From: Ignavibacteria bacterium UBA7675
Lineage (GTDB): Bacteria; Bacteroidota; Ignavibacteria; Kapaibacteriales; UB7675
Length of the DNA stretch: 64,000 nt
Reading direction: 5' to 3'
NCBI GenBank assembly: GCA_002483085.1
Contig: DLHF01000046.1
Location: 5,313 to 69,312 of the forward strand
The notes beneath the pieces were generated by a model, which was not told the DNA's origin, did not search any database, and was given only the letters and a program-made list of their open reading frames with translations. Shown here piece after piece: positions 20,591-38,826 of the stretch. Both the position numbers and the translations under genes were made by a program. Each line of letters starts with the position of its first letter. Within the stretch, counting starts at the first letter, position 1.

Positions 20591-22015
20591 ATGACTGTCA
20601 TGATCCAGCCCTACAAGCCCCTGAACAAGATACGCATTGTTACGGCGGCTTCCCTGTTCGATGGCCACGACGCAGCAATTAATATTATGCGCCGTATTCT
20701 GCAATCTACCGGTGCGGAGGTGATCCACCTCGGACACAATCGATCAGTGCAGGAAATCGTGGACTGCGCTATCCAGGAAGATGTCCAGTCCATCGCCATT
20801 ACAAGCTACCAGGGCGGCCACGTCGAGTATTTTAAGTATATGTACGACCTGCTGCACGAAAAAGGAGCTGGCCATATTAATATTTTTGGCGGCGGCGGCG
20901 GCACAATCCTGCCCTCGGAAATTGAAGAGCTGCACGCCTATGGTATCACTCGAATCTACTCCCCCGACGACGGACGCGCCCTTGGATTGCAGGGTATGAT
21001 CAATGATGTGATGGAGAAATCTGATGTTGTTCCACCCGTCTCCTTCGGAGACGATTTTGTGGAAAATGTTCGGGGCAAAAATGCTCTTGCGCTGGCTCAG
21101 GCTATCACCCTTATAGAAAACGATCCCGCTCGTTCGGCTCAGTTGCTCGCAGCGCTCGGCACGCCCGCCAAAGTAATTCCCGTGCTCGGCATCACTGGTA
21201 CTGGTGGCGCTGGGAAGTCGTCGCTTACCGATGAACTCGTGCGCCGCTTTCTCGAAGATTTCCCCGACAAAACTATTGCTGTGATGTCGGTGGACCCCTC
21301 CAAACGCAAAACCGGCGGAGCACTGCTCGGCGACCGTATTCGCATGAATGCCGTGGGCAATGAGCGCGTGTATATGCGTTCGTTCGCCACACGCGAAGCA
21401 AATGTAGCGCTGAACCGCAATGTGCGCACGTCTATCGATGTGCTGAAAGCCGCTGGCTTCGATCTCATTATCGTAGAAACTGCCGGTATCGGGCAAAGCG
21501 ATTCGCAAATTACCGATGTAGCCGATGTATCACTCTATGTGATGACTCCCGAATACGGTGCTGCCAGCCAGCTCGAAAAAATAGATATGATCGACTATGC
21601 CGATATTATCGCGCTGAATAAATTCGACAAACGCGGGGCTCTCGACGCTCTGCGCGATGTAAAAAAACAATACCAGCGCAGCCGTGGCCTCTGGAACATA
21701 AAGCCCGATGAAATGCCCGTGTACGGCTCCATTGCCTCGCAGTTCAACGACCCCGGCACCAATGCGCTGTACAGAGCGATCATCGATAAAATTATGGAAA
21801 AAGTACCGCTCGGATGGCAATCGTCGTTCTACTCTACCGATGAAATGAGCGAAAAAATTTACATTATTCCGCCCGACCGCACCCGATACCTCGCCGAAAT
21901 TGCAGAGGAATCGCAGCGCTACGATAAGCTCGTGGAAGAGCAATCAGATGTAGCTCGCAAGCTGTTTCAAATCAAAGGAACAATCGAAGTGCTGAAAGAG
22001 CGCGCAACCAAGTAA
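20591..22015 (+). CDS. B12-binding domain fused to MeaB/ArgK-type G-protein chaperone (N-terminal two thirds of an IcmF-like fused acyl-CoA mutase)
   Basis: ATG at 20591 (MTVMIQPY). B12-binding Rossmann domain with DxHxxG-type motif ([11 protein letters not shown]). GTPase P-loop [12 protein letters not shown], switch regions and NKFD. Confidence 0.85.
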
Positions 22016-22036
22016 TCCTTCTCTGCTGAAGTGCTA

Positions 22037-22064
22037 AAGCCAGGGCGTTGCTCTGGCTTTTTTG
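22037..22064 (+). terminator. rho-independent terminator after the B12/MeaB gene
   Basis: AGCCAG-ggcgttgct-CTGGCTTTTTTG. Confidence 0.7.
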
Positions 22065-22094
22065 TTGTACAGCAGTGGGGTCCTATCGGTCATG

Positions 22095-22288
22095 GCGCTT
22101 CGGCCTCCGCCCTCGTGTTGCCTCTCCGCACCGCGCAGCACAGCCGCAGCATGGCTTTTCAACCGTCACCCGCAAGAAAAAGGCCACCCGCACATGCAAC
22201 GACGGCTGGCGGAAAACTTCCGAACTACACGACAACGGGTGTGCGACCGGCGACAGCGGCTGAACGCCAGAGCGAAGAAGCCCGTGCC
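22095..22288. repeat. composite repeat-family copy (module B forward + module A reverse)
   Basis: GCGCTTCGGCCTCCGCC...CTCTCCGCACCGCGCAGCACAGCCGCAGCATGG. Then GTGTGCGACCGGCGACAGCGGC...GAAGCCCGTGCC. Confidence 0.65.
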
Positions 22289-22436
22289 CATACATTACCT
22301 TCGCAGAAGAACTAAAGGCAGCTCCAGACTAAAAAAAACGGGACGAAAGAAGGAACTGTTTGCTGGTGAGTTTTTTTGTATGTTACGGAATCGCTCGAAG
22401 CAACAGGAAAGATTGTATCCTATGCGGGGAGAAACT

Positions 22437-25400
22437 ATGAACATTGTACGCTCGCGCTGCCTTCTACTGATACTTTTGTACTGTCTTCTGGCCGCTGCAT
22501 CTCTTCCGGCTGTAGCTCAGCCCGACACGCGCGGGCAGGAGTTTTACCTCACCTTTCCACCTAATTTTCACAATAACCTCGACAATCCACAGGCCAGCCT
22601 TATCGACAGCCTGTATATTTTTATTGCAGCAACCGAACCAACAACAGGCCAGATTGCCTACCGAGACATCGACAACAACGCATTTGTCGTCAATTATTCG
22701 ATTACTGATCCCTCGCAGGTGTACACATTCGGCATACCGTGGATAGACTTTGAACTGCGTGGATTCAACGACAGCGGTACGCTTATCAGCTACCATCAAA
22801 GCGCGAGTATTGCTCCACAGTCCTTTCGCATTACCAGCAGCAAAGACGTAGCAGTCTACGCCCTGAATCGCGCCGAAACAACCAGCGATGCCATGCTCGT
22901 GCTGCCCACAGATGTGCTTGGTACAAAGTACCGCGTCATGGCGTACAATTCGGATTTTCGCGGCAATGAGGACATGGACACGCCTTCGCAACTGGCCGTT
23001 GTAGCCACGCGCGATAATACGGTGCTCACGATTCAGCCCACCGTGCCTGTGATGGGCTCCACACTGGGCACGATCACAGTACGCCTGAACGCAGGTAATT
23101 CCTACTTGCTACAGGCTGCTCCCGGCGGACAATTGCCCGACCTGACCGGCACACTTGTAGAGTCGACTCAACCAGTAGCTGTATTCGGCGGCCACCAGCG
23201 CACACGCCTGCCAGTGCAAGACCCCTCGATGAACTCTCGCGATTACCTCATCGAGCAGATTCCCCCGATAGATGTGTGGGGCAAAAGCTATATCCTCACG
23301 CCCTTTCCCCCACCCGATAACCAGCAGGAAGAAGTCGTCGATATCGTGCGTGTGCTCGCTGCCAACGACAATACACAAGTGTTCATCGCAGACGAGCTCA
23401 AAGCCACGCTTGCCGCAGGTGAAGTATATGAAGAACTGCTACAAACAGCGTCGTTGCTCACCGCTTCGGAGAATGTGCTTGTAGCACAGTACAAGCAGAC
23501 CTCGCGGGATGGCGGCAACCTGCGCCTCGCCGACCCGTTTATGATCATTGTCCCGCCTCGAAAGCAGTTCCTTCAGTCGTACCTGTGTATCAATGCACAA
23601 TCCTACGCAGATAAGCGCATTTATTTCCGGCAGTACATGACCCTGATATGCCACAAGAATTATGTTGCCTCGATGACAATCGACGGCGCGCAAGTCAACG
23701 CTGCCCTGTTCAAAGATATTCCCGGCACGTGCTACACATACGCTTGGGTTCCTACAAGCGACGGCTCGCATCATGTAGAAGGGCAAAATCCATTTGGCCT
23801 CTATGTGTATGGCTACGGCACATTGGATTCCTACGGCTATACCGGCGGAATGGCTTTCCACAAAGAAGATGAAGACTTCGTCCATGTTTCGTCGGATACC
23901 GTGCTCTGCACTGGCGACAGCCTACAGCTTTCCATCACAGGAGGCACTTCTTATTCGTGGTCGCCTGCCAACGGGCTGAGCTGTACCGACTGTGCAAACC
24001 CAGTAGCGAAGCCCCAAACAGCTACAACCTATAACGTGTCGTTCACCGATGCCTTTGGCTGCGAACACAAGCGCAGTATTGCGGTCGATGTACAGCCCTA
24101 TCCAAAGCCGGTGGTAAGCAGCGATACAACAATGTGCAGTGGGCAATCGGTTGTGCTCAAAGCTTCGGGTGGGCGCTTCTATCAGTGGTCGCCATCCAGT
24201 GGGCTGAGCTGCACCGATTGTGCATCGCCTACAGCAAACCCGACTAAAACAACGACATACACCGTGGTAATAAGCAACGGCGGTACGTGCTTTGCTACAG
24301 ACAGCGTCACGGTTGCCGTCCGCTTTGCTCCGATTGATGCTCTGCCATCCGATACACTGATGTGCACGAACGATTCCATAGCCTTTCATCTGCCGGCAGA
24401 AGGCTTTTCTTACAAGTGGACACCGGCTACAGGGCTGAGCTGTACCGATTGCCCTAATCCTATAGCTCGACCGACCAAAACGACAAAATACATTGTAGTA
24501 ATGACCAACGACGCTGGCTGCAAAGTCGCCAAAGCTGTGACGGTGACTGTGGTAGCTCTGCCGATTGTCAATATTACACGCGACCTTACGCTGTGCAGCA
24601 ACGATCCGCCGGTAAGGCTGCTCGCTAAAGGCGGTAATTATTACCAGTGGTCGCCCGCCGATGGGCTGAGCTGTACCGACTGCGCGAGCCCGCTCGCGAA
24701 ACCGTCGGCAACAACAACCTACACTGTACATATTTCTATTACCAATACCTGTGCGGCAACAACAACTGTCACTATTACTGTACCGCCCACACCGGTGCCG
24801 GATATTTCTACCGATACAACAGTGTGCCTGAATACTGCTGTGCAACTGCACGCTTCGGGCGGAACAACATACGCGTGGTCGCCTGCCGATGGACTGAGCT
24901 GCACCACCTGCCCCGATCCGCTCGCGCTTCCGCAGAAAAGCACCTTGTATCGCGTAGCAATAGCCAACGACGAAGGCTGCTCTGTAGAAGACAGCGTGCA
25001 AGTTACGGTGATTAGTCCTGCCGACATATCCGTGAGCCCCGATGTGGAAGTATGCCGGGGTTCTTCGGCTTCGCTGAGCGCTAGCGGTGGAAGCGCCTAC
25101 CAGTGGTCGCCCGCCGATGGGCTGAGCTGTACCGATTGCCCGGCTCCTGAGGCTACGCCGAACGAAACAACGATCTACACCGTTGTCATTACTGGCTCCG
25201 GCGGCTGTATGGTAGAGCGCTCCGTAGCTGTTACCGTCCTTCCTGCCCCTCAGCTTGTCGTCGGCCCGGATGCTTCTGTGTGCCGTGGACAAAGCACAGT
25301 TCTCCAGGCATCAGGAGGCGTAGATTATGAGTGGTGGCCTGCGACCAGCCTAAGCTGTAGTAATTGCTCCAACCCTACAGCTACTCCCACATCAACAACA

Positions 25401-26510
25401 CAGTATTATGTGCGGGCGTCGAATGGAAGTTGTTCGCAGATCGACTCCGTGATGGTAACAGTAGCCCCCTGCAATCTGAAAGCAGAGTTCTCTACAGAAG
25501 AATTTCCTCCGCTGCTGCTGTGCAATTCTGCCGAAGGCCGATGCGTATTTCGCAATACCGGAGAAGACCCGATTATCGTAACAAGCTGGCAAATCAGCGA
25601 GGATAAAACATCTTCCTTTGTGCTGCGCGAGCTTGGCCTGACACCGCCGTACACCCTTGCCCCGAGCGATTCGTTAGTGTTTGGCATCGGATTCCAGCCT
25701 CAGCAAACTGGCTCGCTATCAGCCTTGCTCACGATTACAGTACAGGACGCTCCAGTATTTACGCAAAAACTGTCGGGAGAGGGCTACAAAAGAACACTTT
25801 CTCTTTCGCTGGGACCGGACATCTACACAACAATCGGCGATACAATTGCACTGCATATTGTTGCTGCTTGCGACAACTGGAGCGAAGCGCAGATTAGTAA
25901 GATATTGCTCGATATTACCTATCCTATCCAATGGCTAGCCTACAGTGGTACGGCAACCGCCATCGATCCATCGTGGCAAGTGTCGGCTGCCGAACTTCCC
26001 GGCGCAGACCGCGAAGAAAAGACTTTGCACATCTCTGTTGAGGGCAGCCAGCCTCTGACTGCTAATGGCACGGTGGCGACTGTTTACATTATTCCATTCC
26101 TTACAACACAGCAAGTGTACACGCCCCGAGTCTCGGCTTCTGCCCCGGACCGGGAAGTCTGCGTGGCAACTGTTGCCGAAGCAAATTCAATCGACTTAAC
26201 ACTGTGCGTACCGCATCTGCGCCCCATACGCTACAGCGGCTCGGCCTACAAGTTTGAAATCGCAGGCGGCACAGCAGCTTCGGGCGAACATGTGCATGTG
26301 TATTACGGAGTAGCTCTCCAAGCACATTCCACAATTGAGCTCTACGACTGCCTTGGGCAATTGCTCCGCACTATCGACCTCGGAACGCTGGATGCAGGGG
26401 ACTACCGGCACGAGATAGAGATGCAGAACCTCTCACGTGGCATGTATATCATGCGCTATAAATCAGGGCCATACAGTCGCAGTATTCCTTTTCTCTTCGG
26501 CGCTGAATAG
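22437..26510 (+). CDS. giant T9SS cargo protein, paralogue 1: ~480-aa N-terminal domain (IgGFc-binding-N-like, tentative), 7 Cys-containing Ig-like repeats, conserved ~300-aa region, T9SS C-terminal sorting domain
   Basis: GGGGAGAAActATG at 22437 with signal peptide MNIVRSRCLLLILLYCLLAAASLPAVAQP. The listed ORF extends back through the repeat to 22062. Seven repeats of the type Y.WSP..GLSCTDC..P.A.P..TT.Y. C-terminus IELYDCLGQLLRTIDLG...GMYIMRYKSGPYSRSIPFLF. Confidence 0.8.
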   Translation: MNIVRSRCLLLILLYCLLAAASLPAVAQPDTRGQEFYLTFPPNFHNNLDNPQASLIDSLYIFIAATEPTTGQIAYRDIDNNAFVVNYSITDPSQVYTFGIPWIDFELRGFNDSGTLISYHQSASIAPQSFRITSSKDVAVYALNRAETTSDAMLVLPTDVLGTKYRVMAYNSDFRGNEDMDTPSQLAVVATRDNTVLTIQPTVPVMGSTLGTITVRLNAGNSYLLQAAPGGQLPDLTGTLVESTQPVAVFGGHQRTRLPVQDPSMNSRDYLIEQIPPIDVWGKSYILTPFPPPDNQQEEVVDIVRVLAANDNTQVFIADELKATLAAGEVYEELLQTASLLTASENVLVAQYKQTSRDGGNLRLADPFMIIVPPRKQFLQSYLCINAQSYADKRIYFRQYMTLICHKNYVASMTIDGAQVNAALFKDIPGTCYTYAWVPTSDGSHHVEGQNPFGLYVYGYGTLDSYGYTGGMAFHKEDEDFVHVSSDTVLCTGDSLQLSITGGTSYSWSPANGLSCTDCANPVAKPQTATTYNVSFTDAFGCEHKRSIAVDVQPYPKPVVSSDTTMCSGQSVVLKASGGRFYQWSPSSGLSCTDCASPTANPTKTTTYTVVISNGGTCFATDSVTVAVRFAPIDALPSDTLMCTNDSIAFHLPAEGFSYKWTPATGLSCTDCPNPIARPTKTTKYIVVMTNDAGCKVAKAVTVTVVALPIVNITRDLTLCSNDPPVRLLAKGGNYYQWSPADGLSCTDCASPLAKPSATTTYTVHISITNTCAATTTVTITVPPTPVPDISTDTTVCLNTAVQLHASGGTTYAWSPADGLSCTTCPDPLALPQKSTLYRVAIANDEGCSVEDSVQVTVISPADISVSPDVEVCRGSSASLSASGGSAYQWSPADGLSCTDCPAPEATPNETTIYTVVITGSGGCMVERSVAVTVLPAPQLVVGPDASVCRGQSTVLQASGGVDYEWWPATSLSCSNCSNPTATPTSTTQYYVRASNGSCSQIDSVMVTVAPCNLKAEFSTEEFPPLLLCNSAEGRCVFRNTGEDPIIVTSWQISEDKTSSFVLRELGLTPPYTLAPSDSLVFGIGFQPQQTGSLSALLTITVQDAPVFTQKLSGEGYKRTLSLSLGPDIYTTIGDTIALHIVAACDNWSEAQISKILLDITYPIQWLAYSGTATAIDPSWQVSAAELPGADREEKTLHISVEGSQPLTANGTVATVYIIPFLTTQQVYTPRVSASAPDREVCVATVAEANSIDLTLCVPHLRPIRYSGSAYKFEIAGGTAASGEHVHVYYGVALQAHSTIELYDCLGQLLRTIDLGTLDAGDYRHEIEMQNLSRGMYIMRYKSGPYSRSIPFLFGAE

Positions 26511-26599
26511 TGGGAAAACCAGCGTCGGTTTTGCGGGACACAATCATGCCGGGTATGTATTGGAGCTACCTACAGTTGATGACAAAAATAAAAAATGGT

Positions 26600-26732
26600 G
26601 GCACGGGCGTCGCTCGGGCGCTCGGCTCGTCGCTGTCACCGGTCGCAAAACCGCTGCGGTGGAGGTCGGCCAGCCACGCAACGGCAATGCTGCGCGGTGC
26701 GGAGACCCAAAGCAAGAGCGAAGACGGCGGCG
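26600..26732. repeat. compact full-length repeat element (module A forward + module B reverse, ~133 bp)
   Basis: GGCACGGGCGTCGCTCGGGCGCTCGGCTCGTCGCTGTCACCGGTCGCAAAACCGCTGCGGTGG...CCACGCAACGGCAATGCTGCGCGGTGCGGAGACCCAAAGCAAGAGCGAAGACGGCGGCGC. Coordinates may be off by 1 here (see rejected note). Confidence 0.7.
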
Positions 26733-26782
26733 CTCTTATTGCAAAAGCTAAAAAGCACGATGCTCAGCAGCACCAGGCTCTA

Positions 26783-29700
26783 TTGGCAGTTCGCGTGCTG
26801 ATCGTATTCTTGGCATTGGTATGTCTACCCGCTATGTGCAGCGCAGCGGGACAGCCCGACAACAGAGGCGTTGATTTTTACTTCACGTTCCTGCCCAATT
26901 ATCACAGCAACGACAACTCCAATATACGCGATAGCCTGTACCTTGTCATTGCCGCCGAAGAAGCAGCAACAGGTGTGATCACACTGCGCGATATTAACGG
27001 CACGGAGACAACGATAAATTTTTCTATTCCCGATCCGGCTACCGTCTACCGCACTGGGCTTCCGTGGCGCCCGTATGAACTGCGAGGCTGCAATCGCAAC
27101 GGCACTCTCAACTTCGGCGGAGCTGATAATCAGAATGGAAAAGTTGCTCCACAGTCCGTTCATATTACCTCGGATAAAGAGGTCGCTGTCTACGCGCTCA
27201 GCCAGGCTGCAAAAACCAGCGATGCAATGATGGTGCTTCCCACAGATGTTCTCGATAGCCTCTACTACGTGATGTCTTATTATTCCGATGCCCGCGTGGA
27301 AACTGATATATTCGGTACAAAACGGCTCACAGCACAAAGCACGCCTTCGCAATGCGCTATTACAGCAGTAGAGGACAACACAGTTGTCACGATCACGCCT
27401 TCGGTTCGCGTTCGCAATGGAATAACAACGCCTTTTTCGATTACACTACAGCGGGGCGACTCCTACCTGCTCCAAGCCGATATGTACACCAATATTCCCA
27501 ACGCCGATCTTACAGGTACAGCAATAGAATCGACAAAGCCTGTTGCGGTATTTGGCGGGCATCAGCGCAGCCTGCTCCCGGTTTCCTCTACCACACTTGT
27601 TTCCCGCGATTTTCTAGCCGAGCAAATGCTCCCCGTTTCCTCCTGGGGTAAGCGCTATCTGCTCACGCCATTCCCTTCGCCGCCCAATCTGGCTGCCGGG
27701 TCCATGGATGTGTACAGGATATTAGCAGCGCACGACAACACAGAAATTCGCATCGGCGAAGCAGTAGTGGCTACCCTTCGCGCAGGCCAGTATTACCAAG
27801 CTCAGCTCAAGGAACCAGCCCTCGTAGAAGCATCGCAAGACGTGCTGGTAGCGCAGTACAAAGGCTCATCGCAGGAGAGCGACACGGACCGCCTCAGCGA
27901 CCCATTTTTTATTCTCGTGCCACCTCTCAAACAATTCCTGAAGTCATATACTTTTGCTGCTACGCAGGTGACAGCAACGCCCGCTGTGTACCGCGAACAG
28001 TATATCACAATCTTCTGCCCATCGGCAGCCTGTAGCACGATTGCTCTCGACGGCATCCAAGTAGACCAATCGCTGTTCAAACCCGTACCGCTGTCGTGCT
28101 ATTCGTATGCGTGGATTCGCGTGGGCGATGGAGCGCACAGAATTGAAGCCGAGAAAAACTTTGGGTTGTATGTGTATGGCTACGGTTTTGCAGACTCCTA
28201 TGGCTATGTAGGCGGTATGGCTTTTACCGCAGAAAAAGAACCTGCTATTGTGGCTCTGGGCGACACGACTCTGTGCCGTGGCGATACGGCGCGGCTCTCG
28301 GCTTCTGGTGGTGTATTGTACGCGTGGACGGGCGACCATCTGTCGTGTACGGATTGCCCCAATCCTACAGCCGTACCCGAGGTAAGCACTCTGTACACTG
28401 TGGCGATTACCGACGAAAATGGCTGTGCTTACGAGCGCAAAATTTCTGTGCGGGTAAATCAACCACCAATTGCGGTGTGTAGTAGCGATACGGCAATCTG
28501 TACCGGCTCGCAGGTGACAATTTCGGCATCGGGAGGGTCGGGCGTGCAGTGGTCGCCCCCAGAAGGTTTGAGCTGTGTGGATTGCCCCGCGCCAATAGCT
28601 TCCCCCCGCCAGCCGACAATGTACGTGGCTACTGTTGTCAATACATTTGGCTGCACGGCAGTCGACAGCGTGTTTGTGGATGTTTCTCCTTTTCCCATTG
28701 CTGCTATCGCCAACGACACAACCGTATGCACCGATACACCTGTGCTGCTTCAGGCATCCGGCGGTACGCGGTACGTTTGGTTTCCATCCAATGGTTTGAG
28801 CTGTACAAACTGTTCCTCGCCAACCGCGATCACAAGCCAAACTCGCATGTACTATGTGCAGGTGTTCAACGATGCGGGATGCAGCGTACTTGATTCCGTA
28901 CTTGTGACAATTAAACCATGCCAAAGTATTTCTTCGATCAATAGCGCAGTGGTATTTGGGGAGTTTTCCCTGTGCGATTCCGTCGAACAATTATGCTCAG
29001 TGAGCAATGTGGGCAACGCACCATTGGATGTTTTTTCGTGGGCACTGCGCGGTAATAATGCGACGGCATTTTCCGCCTTCCCTGTGTTGCCCAATGGCAG
29101 CGACTTTCCTGTTACGCTCGCGCCCGGCGATTCGCTGCATTTTCGGATTGTGTTTCATCCCGAATACACGGGCTCTCTTACAGCACAGCTCGCCGTACAG
29201 ACATCTGGTGCGCCAAGCGAGGCAGTGTGTGTATTGCAAGGTGGCGGCGTAAAAGGAACTGTCGCTTTTTCGCTTGTACCGCGCATCGCGGCAACGGAAG
29301 CTGGTGCTGTTGCAGGCTTCGATATTCGCGCCGACAACGGCGACTGGAACAACGCCGCACTCAACCAGCTCGTGCTTGAAGTCAACTATCAGACCGAATG
29401 GCTGGCGTATGCTGGCACAATTATTCCGGGGGCGGCTGTCGACAATACATGGCAGTTTACTGCGGAAGAACAACTGGAAGGCAATGGCACGTACACAACC
29501 GTTATCACAGCCGTGGGCGCGACGCCGCTGGCAGCATCTGGCACAATTGCGACAGTGCAAATGGATGTATTTTTAGACACCGACAGGCTGCTTACTCCTA
29601 CTCTTCGCGTTGTGCCCATAGGACGCGAACGCTGCGTGGAAGTGCAGACAACGGCAGAGCCTCTTGATGTTTCTACATGCGCCCGGCAATTGCGCCCAAT

Positions 29701-29980
29701 CCGGTACACCGGTCAGCCGCTGTTTGTCGAGATGCCGGGCGGCACAGTAGAAACAGATGGTATGATAGAACTCCGCTACGGCGTTCCTTTTGCCAGCGAT
29801 GTACATATCGAAGTGTACACAGCTATGGGGCAGATCCTTTACAAGTACAGCACTTCGTACAGCGGAGCTACACAAGATCAGTATGTCGTCGACCTGCGGC
29901 ACTGCGCTCAGCAAATGCTTATCGTGCGGTGCTGGATCGCAGGTCGATGGATGACAAAGCAGGTGTTGCTGGTGAGATAA
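26783..29980 (+). CDS. giant T9SS cargo protein, paralogue 2: same N-terminal domain, 3 Cys-containing Ig-like repeats, conserved C-region, T9SS C-terminal sorting domain
   Basis: The listed ORF starts at 26510 but reads through the repeat element. The true start is probably TTG/GTG near 26783-26795, giving signal peptide (M)AVRVLIVFLALVCLPAMCSAAG. N-domain motifs DNRGVDFYFTFLPNYH, DAMMVLPTDVL, GGHQRSLLPV, YGYGFADSYGYVGGMAF. Tail IEVYTAMGQ... Confidence 0.7.
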   Translation: MAVRVLIVFLALVCLPAMCSAAGQPDNRGVDFYFTFLPNYHSNDNSNIRDSLYLVIAAEEAATGVITLRDINGTETTINFSIPDPATVYRTGLPWRPYELRGCNRNGTLNFGGADNQNGKVAPQSVHITSDKEVAVYALSQAAKTSDAMMVLPTDVLDSLYYVMSYYSDARVETDIFGTKRLTAQSTPSQCAITAVEDNTVVTITPSVRVRNGITTPFSITLQRGDSYLLQADMYTNIPNADLTGTAIESTKPVAVFGGHQRSLLPVSSTTLVSRDFLAEQMLPVSSWGKRYLLTPFPSPPNLAAGSMDVYRILAAHDNTEIRIGEAVVATLRAGQYYQAQLKEPALVEASQDVLVAQYKGSSQESDTDRLSDPFFILVPPLKQFLKSYTFAATQVTATPAVYREQYITIFCPSAACSTIALDGIQVDQSLFKPVPLSCYSYAWIRVGDGAHRIEAEKNFGLYVYGYGFADSYGYVGGMAFTAEKEPAIVALGDTTLCRGDTARLSASGGVLYAWTGDHLSCTDCPNPTAVPEVSTLYTVAITDENGCAYERKISVRVNQPPIAVCSSDTAICTGSQVTISASGGSGVQWSPPEGLSCVDCPAPIASPRQPTMYVATVVNTFGCTAVDSVFVDVSPFPIAAIANDTTVCTDTPVLLQASGGTRYVWFPSNGLSCTNCSSPTAITSQTRMYYVQVFNDAGCSVLDSVLVTIKPCQSISSINSAVVFGEFSLCDSVEQLCSVSNVGNAPLDVFSWALRGNNATAFSAFPVLPNGSDFPVTLAPGDSLHFRIVFHPEYTGSLTAQLAVQTSGAPSEAVCVLQGGGVKGTVAFSLVPRIAATEAGAVAGFDIRADNGDWNNAALNQLVLEVNYQTEWLAYAGTIIPGAAVDNTWQFTAEEQLEGNGTYTTVITAVGATPLAASGTIATVQMDVFLDTDRLLTPTLRVVPIGRERCVEVQTTAEPLDVSTCARQLRPIRYTGQPLFVEMPGGTVETDGMIELRYGVPFASDVHIEVYTAMGQILYKYSTSYSGATQDQYVVDLRHCAQQMLIVRCWIAGRWMTKQVLLVR

Positions 29981-30019
29981 TGCATCTCGATGCACTCGCG
30001 ATACATCTTGCTCAACTTA

Positions 30020-30226: not shown

Positions 30227-30493
30227 GGTGGTTCTCCAAAGTGGTATTGAAAAATATGAATAGGTGGTCCGCACCCGCGACGGGCGCATGGATAACAGTA
30301 CAGGCGATTAAGTTTTGGTTATGGCCATGGGCTAACAGCCGTATGAGCCTGGTGTCGACTGCATACGTGAACATTTAGAGAAGGCACAGCCCTCCTTTCC
30401 GCATAGAGTGGAAAATGTTGTGTTAATCTATGATCAATGCGATTCTGACAAATACTGAATGGGAAAAATCAGATTGGTTAGAATGAAGCTAAC

Positions 30494-30774
30494 GATTGAT
30501 TAGAGTTTGAGAAGGTATGATTGGTTTGCATAGCGGCCTCCGGTGTAACGATTATTATTGCACTGACAGTTGATTAGGAGCTCAGAACGTTGTGGTTGGT
30601 TTCCACAAAGCCTTCATTGCGATTAATTGACGTTATCAGTTAGTTGAGAAACTCAGAAGGTATGGTTGGTTCCCATAGTCTTCACTGCGATGATTGTAAG
30701 TTATCAGTTAGTTAAAAGTTCAGAAGGTAATGGCTGGTTTCCATACAATCCTTCACTGCGATGATTAACATTAG
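30494..30774. repeat. array of four degenerate ~69-73-bp tandem direct repeats upstream of the 30873 gene
   Basis: Units about 30494-30566, 30567-30636, 30637-30705, 30706-30774. The last two are cagttagttRARARYtcagaaggtaWggYtggttYccatA..cttcactgcgatgatt. Identity decays towards the 5' units. Confidence 0.75.
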
Positions 30775-30872
30775 TGTCTCTTTTTCTCGTGAACTTGGGG
30801 CAAATTTAATGTAATTTGACGGTATATACAAGAGATAAAATGGGTACCATGTTTTTTTTGTAGAATTTTAGT

Positions 30873-32360
30873 ATGAATTTTCTAAAACAAGTTATTAACC
30901 TATTAGACAAATACGAACAGAAATTAGAGTTTTTCGACGAGGCTGATCTTGCGAATACAACCTTCCACAAGCTATATGACGGTGTAAAATCAGGCAAATA
31001 CTCAACCGATGAAGAAGCCTGCGGCGACATCTACCAGCTTGAAGCACCGGATGCACGCTATCGCAATCTTAAATCGCGCCTAAAGAAAAAGTTAGCGGGA
31101 AATCTTTTCTTTCTAAGAATTGAACAGCCGGAACATTCGGAATACCTCTCCACAGTTCATGACATATTCCATCAAGTTTACATATTACATACCCTTGGTA
31201 GTTTAGGGGCATCCGTGGCAGCTAATGAGGTTGCCGAACAGATTTTTGCAAAGGCACAAAAGTTCCACCTAACCAATGCCGCTGTGGATAGCCTTCTGAC
31301 ACTTCGCAAGCGTGGAGCCTATCACGGTCAGTCAAAGGAATATCTACGCTACAGCGAATTACTCGACTACTATATTAGAGTACAAAGTGCCGAGATAAAA
31401 GCATCAAGCTATATAGAATCGATTAACATAATATTCACAAATACTAAATCTGATTCTCCCGGTATTATAGAACAATTAGAACATGCTGTCAGCGAAGTCT
31501 CTAATTTGTCAGATGAATACAAATCTCATTTCTTATTTCTCACTCATTACCGACTAAGCATTTACCTAAGCCAACTTAAAAAAGACAGTCTATTAGCACT
31601 GCAAGTATGTAATACTATAGATGAGTTCTATCACAAGTACCCTCATTTAGTAACTACGACCAGGATAGGTGAAATTGCTCTTGACAAAACCATGGCATAT
31701 TTCTATTTACGCCGCTATCGAGAGGGCGTTGAATATGCAAGACCCTATCTGCCAATATTTCGGGAAGGCGGGAATACATGGTTCACATTTAGAGAAACAT
31801 TCTGCTGGCTTCTAATCCATGGACAATGTTATACCGAGGCTCGCGAAGTTTACGAGGGGACAACTACTCACATCAGCTTCGACACTGGCATTGCCCATCG
31901 CAAAGAAACATGGCAAATCTTTGGCTTGTATCTCGCCTTTGTCGAAGGTGCAGAAACACCGGACATGGACAAGTTCATGAAAGACATGGAGGTGTACCGC
32001 GCCGACAAAAGTGGAGCCTATGTCACCGTGCTGGCTCTGAGCATTCTCGTTCTACTCCGCAAAGGCGACTACGACAGTATTATTACCCGCGATGAATACC
32101 TTAAAAAATACCTCACACGCTATCTGCGGGGTGAGGATCACGCACGTGGTGCTGCATTCTTCAAACTGCTGCGCCTTCTCGCAAAAAACGACTTTAGCTT
32201 GGATGCTGTAAAGAAGTACGGAGAGAAACACATTGCCGTGCTGTACGACGCTTCGCTCCCGCTCGACGACTACGAGGTAATGCCCTACGAACGCATGTGG
32301 GAATATGTCGTAGAGACGTTGACCGGCTCTGCGGGAACGGCTCTTCGCAGCATTAGCTAA
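30873..32360 (+). CDS. hypothetical all-alpha protein (495 aa), AT-rich orphan gene
   Basis: Long ORF in a locally ~40% GC stretch. No motifs I can assign. Helix-rich composition with Y/F/L periodicity suggestive of TPR-like packing (tentative). Confidence 0.55.
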   Translation: MNFLKQVINLLDKYEQKLEFFDEADLANTTFHKLYDGVKSGKYSTDEEACGDIYQLEAPDARYRNLKSRLKKKLAGNLFFLRIEQPEHSEYLSTVHDIFHQVYILHTLGSLGASVAANEVAEQIFAKAQKFHLTNAAVDSLLTLRKRGAYHGQSKEYLRYSELLDYYIRVQSAEIKASSYIESINIIFTNTKSDSPGIIEQLEHAVSEVSNLSDEYKSHFLFLTHYRLSIYLSQLKKDSLLALQVCNTIDEFYHKYPHLVTTTRIGEIALDKTMAYFYLRRYREGVEYARPYLPIFREGGNTWFTFRETFCWLLIHGQCYTEAREVYEGTTTHISFDTGIAHRKETWQIFGLYLAFVEGAETPDMDKFMKDMEVYRADKSGAYVTVLALSILVLLRKGDYDSIITRDEYLKKYLTRYLRGEDHARGAAFFKLLRLLAKNDFSLDAVKKYGEKHIAVLYDASLPLDDYEVMPYERMWEYVVETLTGSAGTALRSIS

Positions 32361-32483
32361 ACCGCCCCAACAACGGAAGTTTGCAGCATCCGCAGCACAG
32401 CAGAATATATGTTGCGGATTATTCGGTGTTCCTGTTTATTTTCCCTCTTGCTCCCAAGCACAGACTAATCGATGGAGGGAAAC

Positions 32484-34634
32484 ATGCTCACCAGCAACTT
32501 GTTTCGCAGTATCTACTGCATGGCGTTATGTACCATGCTGGCCGTATCTCTTCTGGCACAAACTGTCCCCGACAGCCGGGGGCGGGAATTTTACTTTACA
32601 TTCCCCCCCAACTTCCACGAAAACAACAATCGGGACAGCTTGTTTATTTTCATTGCAGCAGCACAGCCTACAACTGGAAATATAGCCTATCGCAATAGCA
32701 GCGGTACACGAATAAACCGTGTATTTACCATCAGCGACGTATCCAAAGTTTATTCTTTCGCTGTATCCTATCGCAATATCGAACTCGGCAGTGCATTCAA
32801 CAACACGGGCAGCAACCAGAACGGGAAAGTAGCGCCGCAGTCGTTCCATGTTACAGCCGATCAGGATATCGCCGTGTATGCGCTCAGCTACAGCAACAGA
32901 ACAAGCGATGCCATGATGGTGCTACCTACCGATGTGCTCGGCACGGAATATATGGTACTCGCCTACAACAGCGATGGACTCGACAAAGAGCCAACACCCT
33001 CGCAGCTCGCTGTGGTTGCTCCAGAAGATAATACCGATGTTGTTATCACCCCTTCCACTCGCGTGCTCAATGGCTCTATGGCGCCGATCAGCATTCGCCT
33101 GAACAGCGGAGACTCCTACCTGCTACAAGCCGACGTATCGCAGGCAGCTCCCTACAATGATCTTACAGGATCAACAATCAGCACGACTAAACCTGTAGCG
33201 GTGTTCGCCGGGCATCAGCGCACTGTTGTGCCAGTACGCTCATCCGCGCTCATTTCCCGCGACTATCTTTTAGAGCAGCTCCCGCCTGTGCAAGCGTGGG
33301 GACGACGGCATATACTTACGCCCTTTCCCCTTCCCGCAGGAATCCCCGCCACTGAAAATGATCTGTACCGCGTGCTTGCAGCACACGACAATACAGCAGT
33401 AGCGGTAAATGGCACACAACTCGTTGTCCTACGCGCAGGCGAGATTTATGAAGCCCCTCTGCGAACCGCAGCCGTAGTAGAAGCAAATATGGAAGTACTC
33501 GTAGCACAGTATAAACGCTCTTCAAGCCAGCAGAGCACGGACCTCCGGATCAGCGATCCGTTTATGCTCGTCGTGCCGCCGGTGCGACAATACTTGTCGT
33601 CGTATCTCTGCATCAACGCACAGAACTACGACGGTGGGAAAGTGTATCAGCAGCAGTATCTCACCATCATCTGCCCCGCTTCGTTTGTACACACTGTCAC
33701 ACTCGATGGCCAAGCAGTCGATCCCAACCGTTTCCTGCCGGTGCCTACGTCCTGCTATTCCTATGCGATTATTCCAGTACAGGACGGAGTGCACAAAGTA
33801 GAGGCTGCTACTGAAATTGGTATTTATATCTATGGCTATGGGCAGGCTGATTCTTATGGCTATGTGGGTGGAATGGCTTTTAGAAAACACCTCGGTGAAG
33901 GTGGAAATATTGCTTTTACAATGGCTCCCAGCTTCGTACATGCGTCGCCGGGCGATACGATTGCACTCGATATTCACGCCAGCAGCCTTGAATGGCAGGA
34001 TATGGCAGCAGTTTCATTTTCGATGGAACTCGCGTATAAATTTTCGTGGATGACCTACGCAGGAACGTTCACACGCGGGAATGTGCTCGACGATACGTGG
34101 TCGATAGAAGTACAGGAAACGGAAGGCGATGCGCCCGGAACGAAAAAAACTACCATTGTCGCCAGCGGCAGCACACCAGTAGCACAGGACGGAACCATTG
34201 CTACCATCCGCATGCTGCTTTTCATGAATACCGATACAGTGTACACGCCTTCGTTATCAGCATCGGTCAATGGCGATATTAACTGCGTAAAAACAACAGC
34301 AGCATCGCTACATATCGGCCTTTCGCAATGCGTTATCAATCTCAGCCCCATCCACTACTCCGGCAGTGGTTATGGGCTCGGGCAGGTGGCAAATGCCAGT
34401 GCATCCACAGGTGTACTTCGCCTGCGCTACAGCGTGGGCATTGAAGCCGAAACTCGCATCGAACTCTTCAACAGCCTCGGCGAGCGAATAAGCACACTTG
34501 TCGATACCGTAAAACCGCCGGGTGCATACGAGCAAGAAGCAGATGTCTCGCAATACGGAGCAGGTGCTTATTTTATCAGAATGGTATCGGGGCCCTACAG
34601 CCACACCCTGCCGATAGTATTGGGATCCAGATAA
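32484..34634 (+). CDS. T9SS cargo protein, paralogue 3: shared N-terminal domain and C-region, no Cys-Ig repeats, T9SS C-terminal sorting domain
   Basis: GGAGGGAaacATG at 32484 with signal peptide MLTSNLFRSIYCMALCTMLAVSLLAQT. Motifs DSRGREFYFTFPPNFH, DAMMVLPTDVLGTEY, AGHQRTVVPV, YGYGQADSYGYVGGMAF. Tail IELFNSLGE...GAYFIRMVSGPYSHTLPIVLG. Confidence 0.8.
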   Translation: MLTSNLFRSIYCMALCTMLAVSLLAQTVPDSRGREFYFTFPPNFHENNNRDSLFIFIAAAQPTTGNIAYRNSSGTRINRVFTISDVSKVYSFAVSYRNIELGSAFNNTGSNQNGKVAPQSFHVTADQDIAVYALSYSNRTSDAMMVLPTDVLGTEYMVLAYNSDGLDKEPTPSQLAVVAPEDNTDVVITPSTRVLNGSMAPISIRLNSGDSYLLQADVSQAAPYNDLTGSTISTTKPVAVFAGHQRTVVPVRSSALISRDYLLEQLPPVQAWGRRHILTPFPLPAGIPATENDLYRVLAAHDNTAVAVNGTQLVVLRAGEIYEAPLRTAAVVEANMEVLVAQYKRSSSQQSTDLRISDPFMLVVPPVRQYLSSYLCINAQNYDGGKVYQQQYLTIICPASFVHTVTLDGQAVDPNRFLPVPTSCYSYAIIPVQDGVHKVEAATEIGIYIYGYGQADSYGYVGGMAFRKHLGEGGNIAFTMAPSFVHASPGDTIALDIHASSLEWQDMAAVSFSMELAYKFSWMTYAGTFTRGNVLDDTWSIEVQETEGDAPGTKKTTIVASGSTPVAQDGTIATIRMLLFMNTDTVYTPSLSASVNGDINCVKTTAASLHIGLSQCVINLSPIHYSGSGYGLGQVANASASTGVLRLRYSVGIEAETRIELFNSLGERISTLVDTVKPPGAYEQEADVSQYGAGAYFIRMVSGPYSHTLPIVLGSR

Positions 34635-34679
34635 TCGCAACAACACAACATCGTGGCTGTATGTTGCAAAGAGATAGGT

Positions 34680-34752
34680 GGCACGGGCGTCTTTGTGACG
34701 CCCGCCCAGTCGCTGTCACCGGTCGCACGAGCCGGTTAGCCGCTGGCCAAAA
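34680..34752. repeat. solo module-A repeat copy
   Basis: GGCACGGGCGTCtttgtGACGCCCGCCCAGTCGCTGTCACCGGTCGCACGAGCC. The internal stem-loop is maintained by compensatory change. Confidence 0.6.
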
Positions 34753-34782: not shown

Positions 34783-35193
34783 CTATTTTACAAAATAGAG
34801 ATCAGCATCGGTGTCTTTGTCTTCTTTGTAATCGTATAGTAACACACGAAATGTTAGCTTCTCGTCGGTAAGCGTGCGAACCTCGCATGAATCACCGTCT
34901 ATGACCAGTGTCCTATCGCCATTGGTCAGTTGCCATACCGTAGTTCCAATCGTAGTCCCTTCTTTTTTGGACTCTGCCCTACCATCGCTGTGAAAAGTCA
35001 CGGCGTCTATTCCAATAACGTCGCTCGCATCTTCCCCACTTACGGCTCGTAGTGCCCGCTGAAACGTCCACGAATGAGAAAGCAGAATATCCCGACGTGT
35101 TTTCTGGGTTGCAACAGGGTCGTCTGAGCAACTGGCAAACAGGAACGACACGGCCAACAGTACAATCAGGATAAGTGCCGGTTTGTTTTTCAT
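34783..35193 (-). CDS. lipocalin-like domain lipoprotein (paralogue a)
   Basis: Lipoprotein signal MKNKPALILIVLLAVSFLFASCSDD. Lipocalin_4-like LLSHSWTFQRAL...WQLTNGDRTLVIDGDSCEVRTLTDEKLTF. Confidence 0.65.
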   Translation of the reverse strand: MKNKPALILIVLLAVSFLFASCSDDPVATQKTRRDILLSHSWTFQRALRAVSGEDASDVIGIDAVTFHSDGRAESKKEGTTIGTTVWQLTNGDRTLVIDGDSCEVRTLTDEKLTFRVLLYDYKEDKDTDADLYFVK

Positions 35194-35372
35194 AGCATAC
35201 TGCCCGATAATGAGGAGATAATTGGATGATAGATTGTGGATGAGATTCCAAGTTAGAGAATTTCGCTATCTGATACAATACCACTACAGCTTCATAAGTG
35301 AAGTGCGGTTTAAAATGACAGCGGTGCGCCACAAGAGCACACCGCCATCGAATCTACTGCGCTACAAGGAGA

Positions 35373-35798
35373 CTACTTGTACGTAAGGTCGACGGGATAT
35401 GTCACCGTTTGATATTCGATGTTCGCCTTGCCCTTGAATTCACTTTCGCTCAGAGAAACGATAGTCACAACAAATTCATCGCTCGTCCCTTGGTCAAAGA
35501 CAATCTGTGTATCGTTGGAAGCGAGTGCCCAAGTAGATTCGAACGAGCCTTCGCTGCCTTCTATCTGCGCAGTGCCGTCGCTGCTGAATTTAATCTTCTT
35601 CATATACGATTCTATAATCGTTTTTACATCCACACCCATCGAGGTCGCAGTTTTCAGCTCCCACGTTTTGAGCAGAAGAAGCTCTTTTCTCGATTTATTC
35701 CCCGAAGCGGGATTGTCGTCGTCTTTGGAGCAACCTACGAGCAGCGACAAGCTGGCTATAACAACAAGAACGAGTGGAAGTACATAGCGTCGATTCAT
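35373..35798 (-). CDS. lipoprotein with lipocalin-like architecture (paralogue b, diverged)
   Basis: Internal start MNRRYVLPLVLVVIASLSLLVGCSKDD. LLLLKTWELKTATS...TWALASNDTQIVFD...EFVVTIVSLSESEFK. Confidence 0.55.
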   Translation of the reverse strand: MNRRYVLPLVLVVIASLSLLVGCSKDDDNPASGNKSRKELLLLKTWELKTATSMGVDVKTIIESYMKKIKFSSDGTAQIEGSEGSFESTWALASNDTQIVFDQGTSDEFVVTIVSLSESEFKGKANIEYQTVTYPVDLTYK

Positions 35799-35916
35799 AC
35801 CTTTACACCATACAGAGGTTTTACAACACGATTGCCGCAAGATACAAACTGATTAGCAGTTTTCATATGGATGAAGCAATTGACAGTTTCCGGCGCAGAG
35901 GAGCAGAGTTAATGTG

Positions 35917-36309
35917 CTACTTCACAAAAAACAGGTCCCTATCACCTTCTTTGTCTGGTACGCGCAATGTCATCTTCTCGTCCGTAAGCGTGCGAATTCC
36001 GCACGAATCGCTTTGTATAATCACCGTTTTATCGCCATCGACCAGTTGCCAGCCAGTGGTTCTGACCTCATCACCTTCCTTTTGGGCTTCAACTATACCA
36101 TTGGCATAGAATGTCAACACTTCTACTTCAATATCGTAAGTAACATCCTTTCCACCGGCAACTACCAGAGCTCGCTGAAACATCCAGGGGTGAGCAAGAA
36201 GCAACTCGCGACGCGTTTTCTCGGATGAGGCCGCGTCGTCGGAACAATTAGTGAACAGAAAGGATACTGCAAGCAGCACCAGCAGAACAAGAATAGGATT
36301 GCGTCTCAT
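35917..36309 (-). CDS. lipocalin-like domain lipoprotein (paralogue c, close to a)
   Basis: MRRNPILVLLVLLAVSFLFTNCSDD. LLLAHPWMFQRAL...WQLVDGDKTVIIQSDSCGIRTLTDEKMTL. About 55% identical to 34783-35193. Confidence 0.65.
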   Translation of the reverse strand: MRRNPILVLLVLLAVSFLFTNCSDDAASSEKTRRELLLAHPWMFQRALVVAGGKDVTYDIEVEVLTFYANGIVEAQKEGDEVRTTGWQLVDGDKTVIIQSDSCGIRTLTDEKMTLRVPDKEGDRDLFFVK

Positions 36310-36591
36310 GGCAGATAGTATTATAGTTAGGAAAACCGGGTTGGAGCTAAAGTTAGTAAATTTCCCTATTTACAGCAATTGCCCTGAACTGTTATCGCAT
36401 CTAAATTTTCCAGCGGCGTTTTTTCAAGAATTTCGCCACCGCGCTTTATATGCGTTTGCTCTGGCCGCTGTGCGTATGGCTATTAGTTGCAGAAGGCCAT
36501 ATCGTTGCGCCCACACACCGATGAGCACATCCTGCGGCTGAAGCTCTATGCTATTGAGTGCTTCTCTGCACAGGGCGAAGGAGGCCGGACT

Positions 36592-36651
36592 ACCACGCGG
36601 CGGACGTGCTGCGCGGTGCAGAGAACGGAGTACGCACAGCGACCGAAGCGC
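36592..36651. repeat. solo module-B repeat copy (reverse orientation)
   Basis: CCACGCGGCGGACGTGCTGCGCGGTGCAGAGAACGGAG...GCGACCGAAGCGC. Confidence 0.6.
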
Positions 36652-36733
36652 TCCTATCGCCATTGCACTGCCGACAAGGCTCTACCCGCGAGGAAAAATT
36701 TTTACCACTGCACAATGCTTTGTAATTTGCAGG

Positions 36734-36799
36734 CCGTTTCCGCGCCGCAACACGGCACTGCTTTGTTCGTCTGCACGGAAACCGGTTTTTTCTGTTTTT
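36734..36799 (+). promoter_or_regulatory. terminator/attenuator-like hairpin in the leader immediately upstream of the mutase gene, preceded by a Bacteroidota-type -7 box (TAATTTG at 36723-36729)
   Basis: CCGTTTCCG...(32 nt)...CGGAAACCGG followed by TTTTTTCTGTTTTT, 17 nt before the ATG at 36817. Confidence 0.4.
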
Positions 36800-36816
36800 A
36801 ACAGCCTGGAACATCT

Positions 36817-38826
36817 ATGCAGAACGCTTCTACAACCGACGTGACAACGCTCAACGGCCTTCGCAACGGCCATTCCAGTCCGGCTCTTACTGAATTGGAG
36901 CAGGTATATCAGGAACTTCTGGCGTATTTGCGCCCCGAAAGCCGGGAAATTCTCGACTCGTGGGAAGCAAAAAAGGCAAACTACGAGGGCGAACAGTTCA
37001 CCTACAAGGTGCGCGGCAAGGACATACACGTGCGGAACTACACAGAATCGCTCTCGCATACCCAGGTACCTAAGATTGCCGTACCGAAGTTCCGCGACTG
37101 GGGCGAAATTCTGCGCTGGGCGATGCAGGAAAACTTCCCCGGCGAGTTTCCATATACCGCTGGAGTGTACCCATTTAAGCGGCAGGGCGAAGATCCTACG
37201 CGTATGTTTGCAGGCGAAGGTGGTCCGGAGCGCACAAATCGCCGCTTCCACTACCTGTCGCACGGGATGCCCGCAGCGCGGCTTTCCACGGCATTCGACT
37301 CGGTGACACTGTACGGCGAAGACCCGGACGAGCGGCCAGACATCTACGGAAAAATCGGCAACTCGGGCGTGAGCATTGCCACGCTCGACGACGCAAAAAA
37401 GCTGTACTCAGGCTTCGACCTCTGCGCTCCTTCTACCTCGGTGTCCATGACTATCAACGGTCCGGCTCCAATGCTTCTCGCGTTTTTTATGAATGCCGCT
37501 GTGGATCAGCAATGCGAGTTGTACATTCGCCAGCACGGCATGGAAGAAGAAATTTCGGCAAAGATCGACAGAATATACCAAGAGAAGAGTCTGCCCCGCC
37601 CCTCCTACTCCGGTGAACTTCCCGAAGGCAACAATGGGCTCGGCTTGCTTCTGCTGGGCGTAACAGGCGACCAAGTGCTGCCCGCCGATGTCTACCAAGA
37701 GTGCAAAGAACGCGCTCTTACCAGCGTGCGCGGCACAGTGCAAGCAGATATTCTCAAAGAAGACCAAGCGCAGAACACCTGCATCTTCTCCACAGAATTT
37801 GCCCTGCGCATGATGGGCGACATACAGCAGTATTTTATCGAAGAAAAGGTGCGTAACTTCTACTCTGTGTCGATCTCCGGCTATCATATTGCCGAAGCGG
37901 GCGCCAACCCGATTACACAGCTCGCACTTACGCTTGCCAATGGCTTTACCTATGTAGAATACTACCTTTCGCGCGGCATGGATATTAACGACTTTGCGCC
38001 GAACCTGTCGTTCTTTTTCTCTAATGGCATCGACCCCGAGTACTCGGTGATTGGCCGCGTGGCGCGCCGCATCTGGGCTAAAGCTATCAAGAATAAATAC
38101 GGCGGCAACGAGCGCTCGCAAATGCTGAAGTACCACATCCAGACCTCGGGCAGATCGCTGCACGCGCAGGAAATCGACTTCAACGACATACGCACGACGC
38201 TGCAAGCGCTGTACGCTATTTACGACAACTGTAATTCGCTGCACACTAACGCCTACGACGAAGCGATAACAACGCCTACGGAGGAATCAGTGCGCCGCGC
38301 CGTTGCTATTCAGCTTATCATTAATCGCGAGCTCGGCCTTGCGAAAAACGAAAATCCACTCCAAGGTTCGTTTATTATCGAAGAGCTTACCGAACTCGTG
38401 GAAGACGCCGTGCTTACGGAGTTCAACCGCATAGCAGAGCGCGGAGGCGTGCTCGGCGCAATGGAACTCATGTACCAGCGCAACAAGATTCAGGAAGAAT
38501 CGCTGTACTACGAAACACTGAAGCACACAGGCGAATACCCGATCATCGGCGTGAACACCTTCCTGAGCAGCAAGGGCTCGCCTACTGTGGTGCCCAGCGA
38601 AGTAATTCGCTCCACACAAGAAGAAAAGGAACTGCAAATATCCAATGTACGCGCCTTCCAGCAGCGCAACAGCACGACAGCCGACGCGCTCAAGCAGCTA
38701 AAAGTTGTGGCAGTACAAAACGACAATATTTTTGAAGGGTTGATGGAAGCTGCAAAAGTGTGTTCGCTCGGCCAGATGACGCGCTCGCTGTACTCGGTGG
38801 GCGGGCAGTATAGAAGGAATATGTGA
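36817..38826 (+). CDS. methylmalonyl-CoA-mutase-family catalytic (substrate-binding TIM-barrel) subunit, IcmF C-terminal-half-like; no B12-binding domain
   Basis: [66 protein letters not shown], long N-terminal linker region. 669 aa, ends without a DxHxxG Rossmann domain. Confidence 0.85.

Follow-up and report, generated by a model that had tools for sequence, protein, structure and literature searches.

In a stretch of 64,000 nucleotides from Ignavibacteria bacterium UBA7675 (contig DLHF01000046.1, positions 5,313 to 69,312; hereafter the window), two genes on the same strand and 14.8 kb apart encode between them the modules of IcmF, the fused isobutyryl-CoA mutase. The question raised by this locus is whether an island has cut an intact icmF gene in two, or whether the two genes encode the subunits of an enzyme that has long been made in two parts. 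IcmF is a notable case of a G-protein metallochaperone fused covalently to its client mutase, and it serves as a model for cobalamin loading and repair (PMC10481361). An initial interpretation of this DNA, made from the letters without database searches (the sequence-only reading), had put both possibilities forward. We favor, with a probability of a little over 0.8, an ancient fission of icmF that led to a two-subunit IcmF produced from separate transcription units.

The two genes and the junction between them

The upstream gene (the N-half) had been read initially as a B12-binding domain joined to MeaB, and the downstream gene (the C-half) as the IcmF linker and barrel, and both assignments were borne out by profile searches (coordinates of all features are given in Table 1). 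The N-half matches the B12-binding (E 3e-14) and MeaB (E 1e-44) families of Pfam and positions 1-468 of the NCBIfam model for IcmF, NF045497, which has 1076 positions (E 1e-205, 685 bits), while the match of the C-half to the same model reaches its end at position 1076 (E 0, 1108 bits). Other families fit much less well, since the N-half scores 158 bits (1e-46) with MeaB models and the C-half gives E values of 1e-95 to 1e-111 with models of the methylmalonyl-CoA mutase (MCM) type. The cutoff of NF045497 is 1500 bits, and each half singly falls short of it. Homologues support the ATG given in Table 1 as the start of the N-half; the public gene call begins 54 codons further upstream, at 20429, and predicts 528 aa.

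Alignment with the IcmF structure from Cupriavidus metallidurans (PDB 4xc6) places residues 9-468 of the N-half on residues 42-504 of the chain (E 3e-159), and residues 18-243 and 295-669 of the C-half on residues 508-730 and 736-1113 (E 8e-262). Because this chain has 1113 residues, compared with 1093 in the numbering of the published work, we infer a 20-residue tag, which puts the break at about residue 485-487 of the native Cupriavidus protein. Residues 443-1093 of IcmF have been grouped as linker and substrate-binding domain (PMC10481361), and since the two alignments abut at 485-487, the break lies within the linker, as the sequence-only reading had expected. On these alignments the break is clean, with the two halves abutting at one point of the IcmF linker and nothing lost. 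The N-half stops 3-6 residues past its last IcmF-aligned position, which, to judge from the span of MeaB structure alignments, would be about where a free-standing MeaB ends, and in the C-half some 17-25 non-conserved, low-complexity residues precede the start of IcmF homology.

These few residues bear on the idea that a split intein rejoins the halves by protein trans-splicing. The two fragments of a split intein take up about 100 aa and about 35 aa, more than this junction can accommodate. Although metagenomes are known to contain fractured genes of this kind (PMC2677866), the lengths of the two proteins and the lack of extra junction residues practically exclude such a mechanism here.

All the motifs that were checked are in place. 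In the C-half, RMFAGEG, with its Phe, and KEDQAQNT, with its Gln, align with the corresponding Cupriavidus motifs, and this Phe/Gln is the specificity pair of isobutyryl-CoA mutase, as opposed to Tyr/Arg in MCM. In the N-half, the His of FDGHDA aligns with the cobalamin-ligating His of the Cupriavidus protein (chain residue 59, native His39) and is invariant across 18 sequences of the split clade, and the motifs of the P-loop (GTGGAGKSS) and of switch III (AASQLEK) are likewise conserved, the Gln and Lys of the latter being equivalent to Gln341 and Lys344 (residue numbers and roles from PMC10481361). A B12 domain is missing from the C-half, and a barrel from the N-half. It had also been considered that the first gene might group with the MeaB partners of a standard MCM. 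By NF045497 and by the tree described below it groups with the N-terminal halves of IcmF.

The split form and its relatives

The division of IcmF is widespread. Among the best listed homologues, 118 of 120 for the N-half (69-93% identity) and all 120 for the C-half (77-94% identity) are stand-alone proteins, the former of 451-498 aa and without PF01642, the latter of 652-711 aa, and more than 100 clusters at 90% identity are listed for each stand-alone half. Where names are given, the sources are Kapabacteria, Ignavibacteria and Bacteroidetes metagenome-assembled genomes (MAGs). Loci were also fetched from species-representative public genomes and metagenomes. In those closest to the window (67-89% identity in the N-half) the open reading frame (ORF) ends at about 465-490 aa, while those at 54-70% identity contain single ORFs of about 1000-1140 aa, the shortest of which begins at a contig end. 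The fused forms among the fetched loci come from Bacteroidales, Flavobacteriaceae, Leptospira, Bacillota and Hydrogenedentota. An apparent exception, a 3-kb contig (L089) with a stop within an otherwise collinear gene, looks like a frameshift artefact. The metagenome scan returned mostly fused forms among the matches listed and added only two split contexts (L050 and L051), and representatives at 50% identity carried no split/fused signal, because the two forms merge at that level and most representatives are fragments. All five aligned split pairs have their breakpoint in one and the same linker loop, which varies in length and is not conserved.

A neighbour-joining (NJ) tree places the split sequences with one another, within a wider set of fused IcmFs from Bacteroidota, Leptospira and Bacillota, and the split sequences plus the fused ones of Leptospira form one clade in 98.5% of 200 NJ bootstraps. 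A single fission is likely.

Both halves have been kept by selection. The ratio of nonsynonymous to synonymous divergence (dN/dS) from the nearest relatives is 0.06-0.10 for the N-half and 0.063 for the C-half (the latter against L047), and synonymous divergence (dS) is 1.1-1.4 or saturated in every comparison, for both halves. Such dS values mean that the window and its nearest split relatives parted long ago, and the low ratios indicate that both are functional genes under strong purifying selection. With 14.8 kb of unrelated DNA between its two pieces, icmF here superficially resembles a disrupted gene, and the halves could be seen as decaying fragments of a dead one. Nevertheless, dN/dS of 0.06-0.10 rules this out and makes it hardly credible; moreover, both proteins are full-length with every checked motif intact, the clusters listed for each half number more than 100, and neither half lacks a start codon, the N-half being followed by a terminator as well.

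How the halves are arranged in other genomes is informative as well. They are directly adjacent in none of the roughly 12 split lineages seen. The same contig carries both in the window and in L001, L048, L049, L050 and L133, and for about 12 further pairs of N-half and C-half clusters the longest contigs are identical in size. In L133, L048 and L049 a compact co-directional cluster consists of the N-half, a gene for a DUF4397 protein and the C-half, with gaps of 2 nt in L133 and of 49 and 43 nt before and 8 and 29 nt after the DUF4397 gene in L048 and L049, respectively. The same order is found in L050 with an extra gene for a heavy-metal P-type ATPase, and the gap there is 3.9 kb. The gene that follows these four loci is usually that of a PALP enzyme. 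L001 (82% identity) has its C-half on the opposite strand, 3.7 kb upstream of the N-half, with acetyl-CoA hydrolase and LigT genes between them. No C-half was found within 10 kb of the N-half in L003, L007, L010, L012 and L051, nor an N-half within 10 kb of the C-half in L047. Relatives thus share the separated arrangement with different genes in between, which is the finding that the sequence-only reading itself had named as speaking against an island that split the gene.

As a separate observation, genes of acyl-CoA metabolism surround the halves in L001 (7772-9049, 11473-11985 and 14859-18117), where the neighbours encode an acetyl-CoA hydrolase/transferase, a 4HBT thioesterase, a branched-chain aminotransferase and a 2-oxoacid dehydrogenase E1. 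This neighbourhood fits valine/isobutyryl-CoA metabolism; the window is without such neighbours.

The DUF4397 gene between the halves may be the scar of the fission event itself. It is possible, though at odds well short of even, that a DUF4397 or other envelope gene entered the linker in the ancestor of the clade and that the gap later grew or was rearranged into the 14.8-kb block, which refines the ancient fission that we favor and does not replace it. Four relatives (L133, L048, L049 and L050) have N-half, DUF4397 and C-half in this order on a single strand, which argues for it, as does the lack of a single adjacent pair in roughly 12 lineages, which would be unexpected had a point mutation split the gene, and DUF4397 proteins are lipoproteins, an unlikely functional partner for a cytoplasmic mutase. 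However, this arrangement is seen in only one sub-clade of the NJ tree, no DUF4397 gene or relic was found when looked for in the window, the halves are unlinked in other lineages, and the ancestral state is not reconstructable from the present sample. Rather improbable in our opinion is a bolder version, in which a DUF4397-like insertion caused the fission, the gap became a growth point for genes of secreted proteins and lipoproteins (1.3 kb in some lineages and 14.8 kb here), and the N-half would act as a free-standing cofactor-loading cartridge, in principle serving more than one barrel where the halves are unlinked.

A proposed route from one gene to two transcription units

The reading of a recent insertion, in which icmF was intact and fused until a mobile 14.8-kb island entered its linker in this genome or in its immediate forebears, draws on the clean junction and on the two halves lying on the same strand in N-to-C order. 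The block also resembles a genomic island in its accessory cargo (surface proteins, an orphan and lipoproteins) and in one AT-rich segment at 29981-32360, where GC falls to 0.41-0.44. Apart from this segment, however, its GC is that of its surroundings (0.510 for the block, 0.513 for the window), none of its 14 scanned ORFs has an integrase or transposase Pfam domain, the sole tRNA in the window (1822-1904) is 20 kb away, and there are no relics of icmF inside the block nor in-frame at its edges. The repeats to which the sequence-only reading had assigned the role of island boundaries do exist at the block ends, but they belong to a dispersed family of GC-rich intergenic repeats, similar to repetitive extragenic palindromic (REP) elements or miniature inverted-repeat transposable elements (MITEs), with the core consensus CCACGCxxCGGxxxTGCTGCGCGGTGCxGAGA. 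Seven copies in both orientations are present in the window, four of them outside 22-37 kb, and for that reason they do not mark boundaries.

Evidence against a recent insertion also comes from the relatives. The same loop is split in genomes whose halves have different DNA between them or are unlinked, dS to the nearest split relatives exceeds 1, and both ends of the block, including the AT-rich orphan gene, are syntenic in a sister species represented by two contigs of one metagenome sample (SRR24524866). One of these (L005) carries TopA, the N-half (88% identity) and an orthologue of secreted paralogue 1 (61-75% aa identity), in this order, and the other (L131) carries the end of the orphan gene, paralogue 3, three small lipoprotein genes and the C-half (93%), followed by DAO and methyltransferase genes. 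Synteny on the two contigs implies that both block ends were inherited. In L131 the last 116 aa of the orphan are 76% identical to those in the window, paralogue 3 is 66% identical and the small lipoprotein genes 35-56%, so that between the two species the accessory genes change at a far higher rate than the two mutase genes. Given the clade-wide split, the saturated dS, the sister synteny, the dispersed repeats and the lack of detected mobility genes, a recent insertion is rejected, and we hold it to be very unlikely. The block is a lineage-conserved stretch of envelope-protein genes, which would have accumulated or been rearranged after the fission. A general caution follows from this case: collinear halves with accessory DNA between them do not necessarily point to a recent disruptive insertion.

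The transcription signals agree with the other possibility raised by the sequence-only reading, that of two cooperating subunits transcribed independently, which purifying selection also supports. The strong terminator noted after the first gene was confirmed (dG -22.8 kcal/mol, z -3.2, none of 200 shuffles as stable), and minus-strand lipoprotein genes occupy 34783-36309, directly upstream of the C-half, blocking read-through. Terminator and minus-strand genes exclude co-transcription of the halves from what the DNA alone tells, and by these predicted signals the halves are separate transcription units in this genome. A hairpin 17 nt before the mutase ATG had been described as terminator-like. 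The hairpin is there but is of modest stability (dG -23.7 kcal/mol, z -2.2), and we regard it as belonging to the leader of the C-half gene. Its role as a terminator is rejected, because no co-directional gene lies upstream of it and its stem is not kept in L131; a TTTG/TAATTTG stretch just upstream of it (about 36715-36729) is conserved in that contig. A Bacteroidota-type promoter pattern did not occur above chance in the window, and Rfam at gathering threshold returned one tRNA in the window and no riboswitch or other known RNA upstream of either half.

The explanation that we favor places the fission of icmF at the origin of a clade of Bacteroidota resembling Kapabacteria and Ignavibacteria, either in one ancestor shared by its members or in two ancestors closely related to each other, and at the length-variable linker loop that follows the long helices after the G domain. 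One polypeptide would then comprise the cobalamin-binding domain and a complete MeaB-like chaperone, and the other the rest of the linker and the acyl-CoA barrel. IcmA/IcmB and HcmA/HcmB are precedents for a B12 domain that docks on a mutase barrel without a covalent link. By analogy with the former pair, the halves would reassemble non-covalently, with the B12 domain of the N-half docking on the barrel, into a mutase of the IcmF type that interconverts isobutyryl-CoA and n-butyryl-CoA and has its adenosylcobalamin loaded and unloaded by the G-protein. The switch III residues on which the wedge mechanism of IcmF depends (PMC10481361) are intact here, and we expect a heteromeric enzyme that works like IcmF.

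Some points weigh against this explanation. Assembly of the heteromer, its enzymatic activity and the order of events are its inferred parts. All trees are distance-based, and in 77% of the NJ bootstraps the fused Leptospira IcmF falls inside the split clade, being its sister in 21.5%, so that two fissions, a re-fusion or a tree artefact have to be kept in mind; the placement suggests cross-phylum horizontal transfer, a second fission or a re-fusion. The fused sequences concerned (MAGs L008 and L011, and Leptospira weilii P0082) are 70-73% identical to the N-half of the window. The sister contigs L005 and L131 end within the paralogues, and the shared synteny therefore covers the ends of the block and not its middle. 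Finally, the view of this genome is limited to the 64-kb window, and another B12-domain partner or a fused copy may be encoded elsewhere in it.

That last point lends some room to the idea that the N-half now chaperones another mutase, or that the C-half uses another B12 subunit, and in at least six relatives a distance of more than 10 kb does indeed separate the halves, so that position does not enforce co-regulation. Still, each half lacks exactly the module that the other provides, both nest among fused IcmFs and not with MCM or MeaB, they co-occur on many contigs with similar conservation, and they form tight three-gene clusters in L048, L049 and L133. A change of partners is thus quite improbable.

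Among characterized systems, IcmF of Cupriavidus metallidurans (4xc6 and 8ssl; NF045497) is the closest. The two proteins have its three modules in the same order (cobalamin domain, MeaB-type G domain with switch III, linker and barrel), its His ligand, P-loop, switch III Gln/Lys and Phe/Gln substrate residues, and a place among fused IcmFs in the tree. They differ in being two polypeptides from genes 14.8 kb apart, and thus lack the fusion from which the family takes its name. The IcmA/IcmB pair of Streptomyces, with MeaI, also carries its B12 domain and barrel on different polypeptides and shows the Phe/Gln signature. However, IcmB is a small subunit of about 135 aa and MeaI a stand-alone chaperone, whereas here the B12 domain is joined to the G-protein, and the large subunit has an IcmF-type linker and barrel whose sequence derives from IcmF and not from IcmA/IcmB. 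The system of MeaB/MMAA and MCM is similar in that the G-protein is not covalently attached to the barrel, and in the PF03308 match given above, but the G-protein described here carries the cobalamin domain of its client, and the barrel has Phe/Gln and not Tyr/Arg.

Full-text searches found no description of a split IcmF; the founding IcmF papers were outside their coverage, and an earlier mention is possible. The split form appears to be a widespread, selectively maintained natural variant in which the chaperone stays on the cobalamin domain and is detached from the barrel, which alters the picture of IcmF as a fused protein only and provides a ready-made system to ask which covalent links the wedge-open loading mechanism needs. 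Since the public names of the halves are 'cobalamin-dependent protein', 'hypothetical protein' and 'methylmalonyl-CoA mutase', the capacity for isobutyryl-CoA mutase in Kapabacteria- and Ignavibacteria-like organisms is likely under-called. While the story of an island cleaving a gene is unsupported, the split IcmF should be of moderate interest to B12 enzymologists and annotators, and more interesting still, if true, would be that an ancient envelope-gene insertion made the fission and the gap kept collecting such genes.

Genes within and next to the block

The positions of the features discussed are collected in Table 1.

Table 1. Features of the split icmF locus in the window, and the corresponding clusters in relatives
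Feature	Position	Strand	Remarks
IcmF N-half (cobalamin-binding domain, MeaB-type G-protein domain, first linker helices)	20591..22015	+	474 aa; PF02310, PF03308, NF045497
IcmF C-half (rest of linker, substrate-binding TIM barrel)	36817..38826	+	669 aa; PF01642, NF045497
Intrinsic terminator of N-half gene	22036..22060	+	11-bp stem, 6 GC pairs, T-run
Imperfect hairpin and T-run, C-half leader	36729..36795	+	17 nt before ATG
Secreted paralogue 1	22437..26510	+	1357 aa; signal peptide, IgGFc_binding (PF17517), CHU_C-associated Ig_7, weak Por_Secre_tail
Secreted paralogue 2	26510..29980	+	ORF as listed; IgGFc_binding (PF17517)
Orphan protein	30873..32360	+	495 aa, in 41-44% GC stretch
Secreted paralogue 3	32472..34634	+	720 aa; IgGFc_binding (PF17517), weak Por_Secre_tail
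Three paralogous lipocalin-like lipoprotein genes	34783-35193, 35373-35840, 35917-36309	-	lipobox signal peptides
Repeat copies (32-nt core)	5823, 16078, 22123, 26674, 36593, 52812, 58542		
REP-like copy	22095..22170	-	longer copy, core 22123-22154
REP-like copy inside start of listed paralogue 2 ORF	26597-26733		longer copy
Partial REP-like copy	34677-34727		
REP-like copy	36575..36624	+	same place also in sister species L131
N-half/DUF4397/C-half loci in relatives	L048 737-5554; L049 5452-10275; L133 7297-11989; L050 9968-17255		

The cargo of the block had been described as three paralogous proteins of the type IX secretion system (T9SS), an AT-rich orphan gene and lipocalin lipoproteins. 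The paralogy of the large proteins holds and is reinforced by their common IgGFc_binding domain, but the sorting tail stays below the Pfam cutoff, with scores for Por_Secre_tail (PF18962, cutoff 27 bits) of 23.2 for paralogue 1 and 20.2 for paralogue 3 and no match in paralogue 2. No NCBIfam C-terminal sorting domain matched any of the three, and for the L131 orthologue of paralogue 3 a "weak" Por_Secre_tail match is on record. The true start of paralogue 2 is probably near 26.75 kb, past the REP-like copy that overlaps the listed ORF. The AT-rich orphan is as described; its product, a cytoplasmic protein, lacks a signal peptide and matched none of the families in Pfam, NCBIfam or PADLOC. All three small minus-strand genes have lipoprotein signals, and Lipocalin_4 gives a borderline match, at threshold, in the middle one only.

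Paralogue 1 contains six to seven tandem repeats of 228-231 nt (76-77 aa) at 23927-25400, with the motif W-x-P-x(3)-GLSC-x(2)-C, and two such repeats are found in paralogue 2 (28547-28813). Contigs of relatives tend to stop just past the N-half or inside the large secreted genes. In the AT-rich stretch, a pair of direct repeats (30606-30645 and 30674-30713) occurs with a spacing of 68 nt.

Right after the C-half lies a two-gene cassette (38887-40712, + strand), with overlapping stop and start, that encodes an AAA_15/AAA_21 ATPase of 434 aa and a protein of 174 aa. It matches the PADLOC candidate defence system HEC-01 (HEC-01A, E 3e-48; HEC-01B, E 7e-7) and has a low GC, 0.425. The sister species is without it, and in L131 the C-half adjoins the DAO gene; the HEC-01-like cassette follows the C-half also in the more distant L001 and L047.

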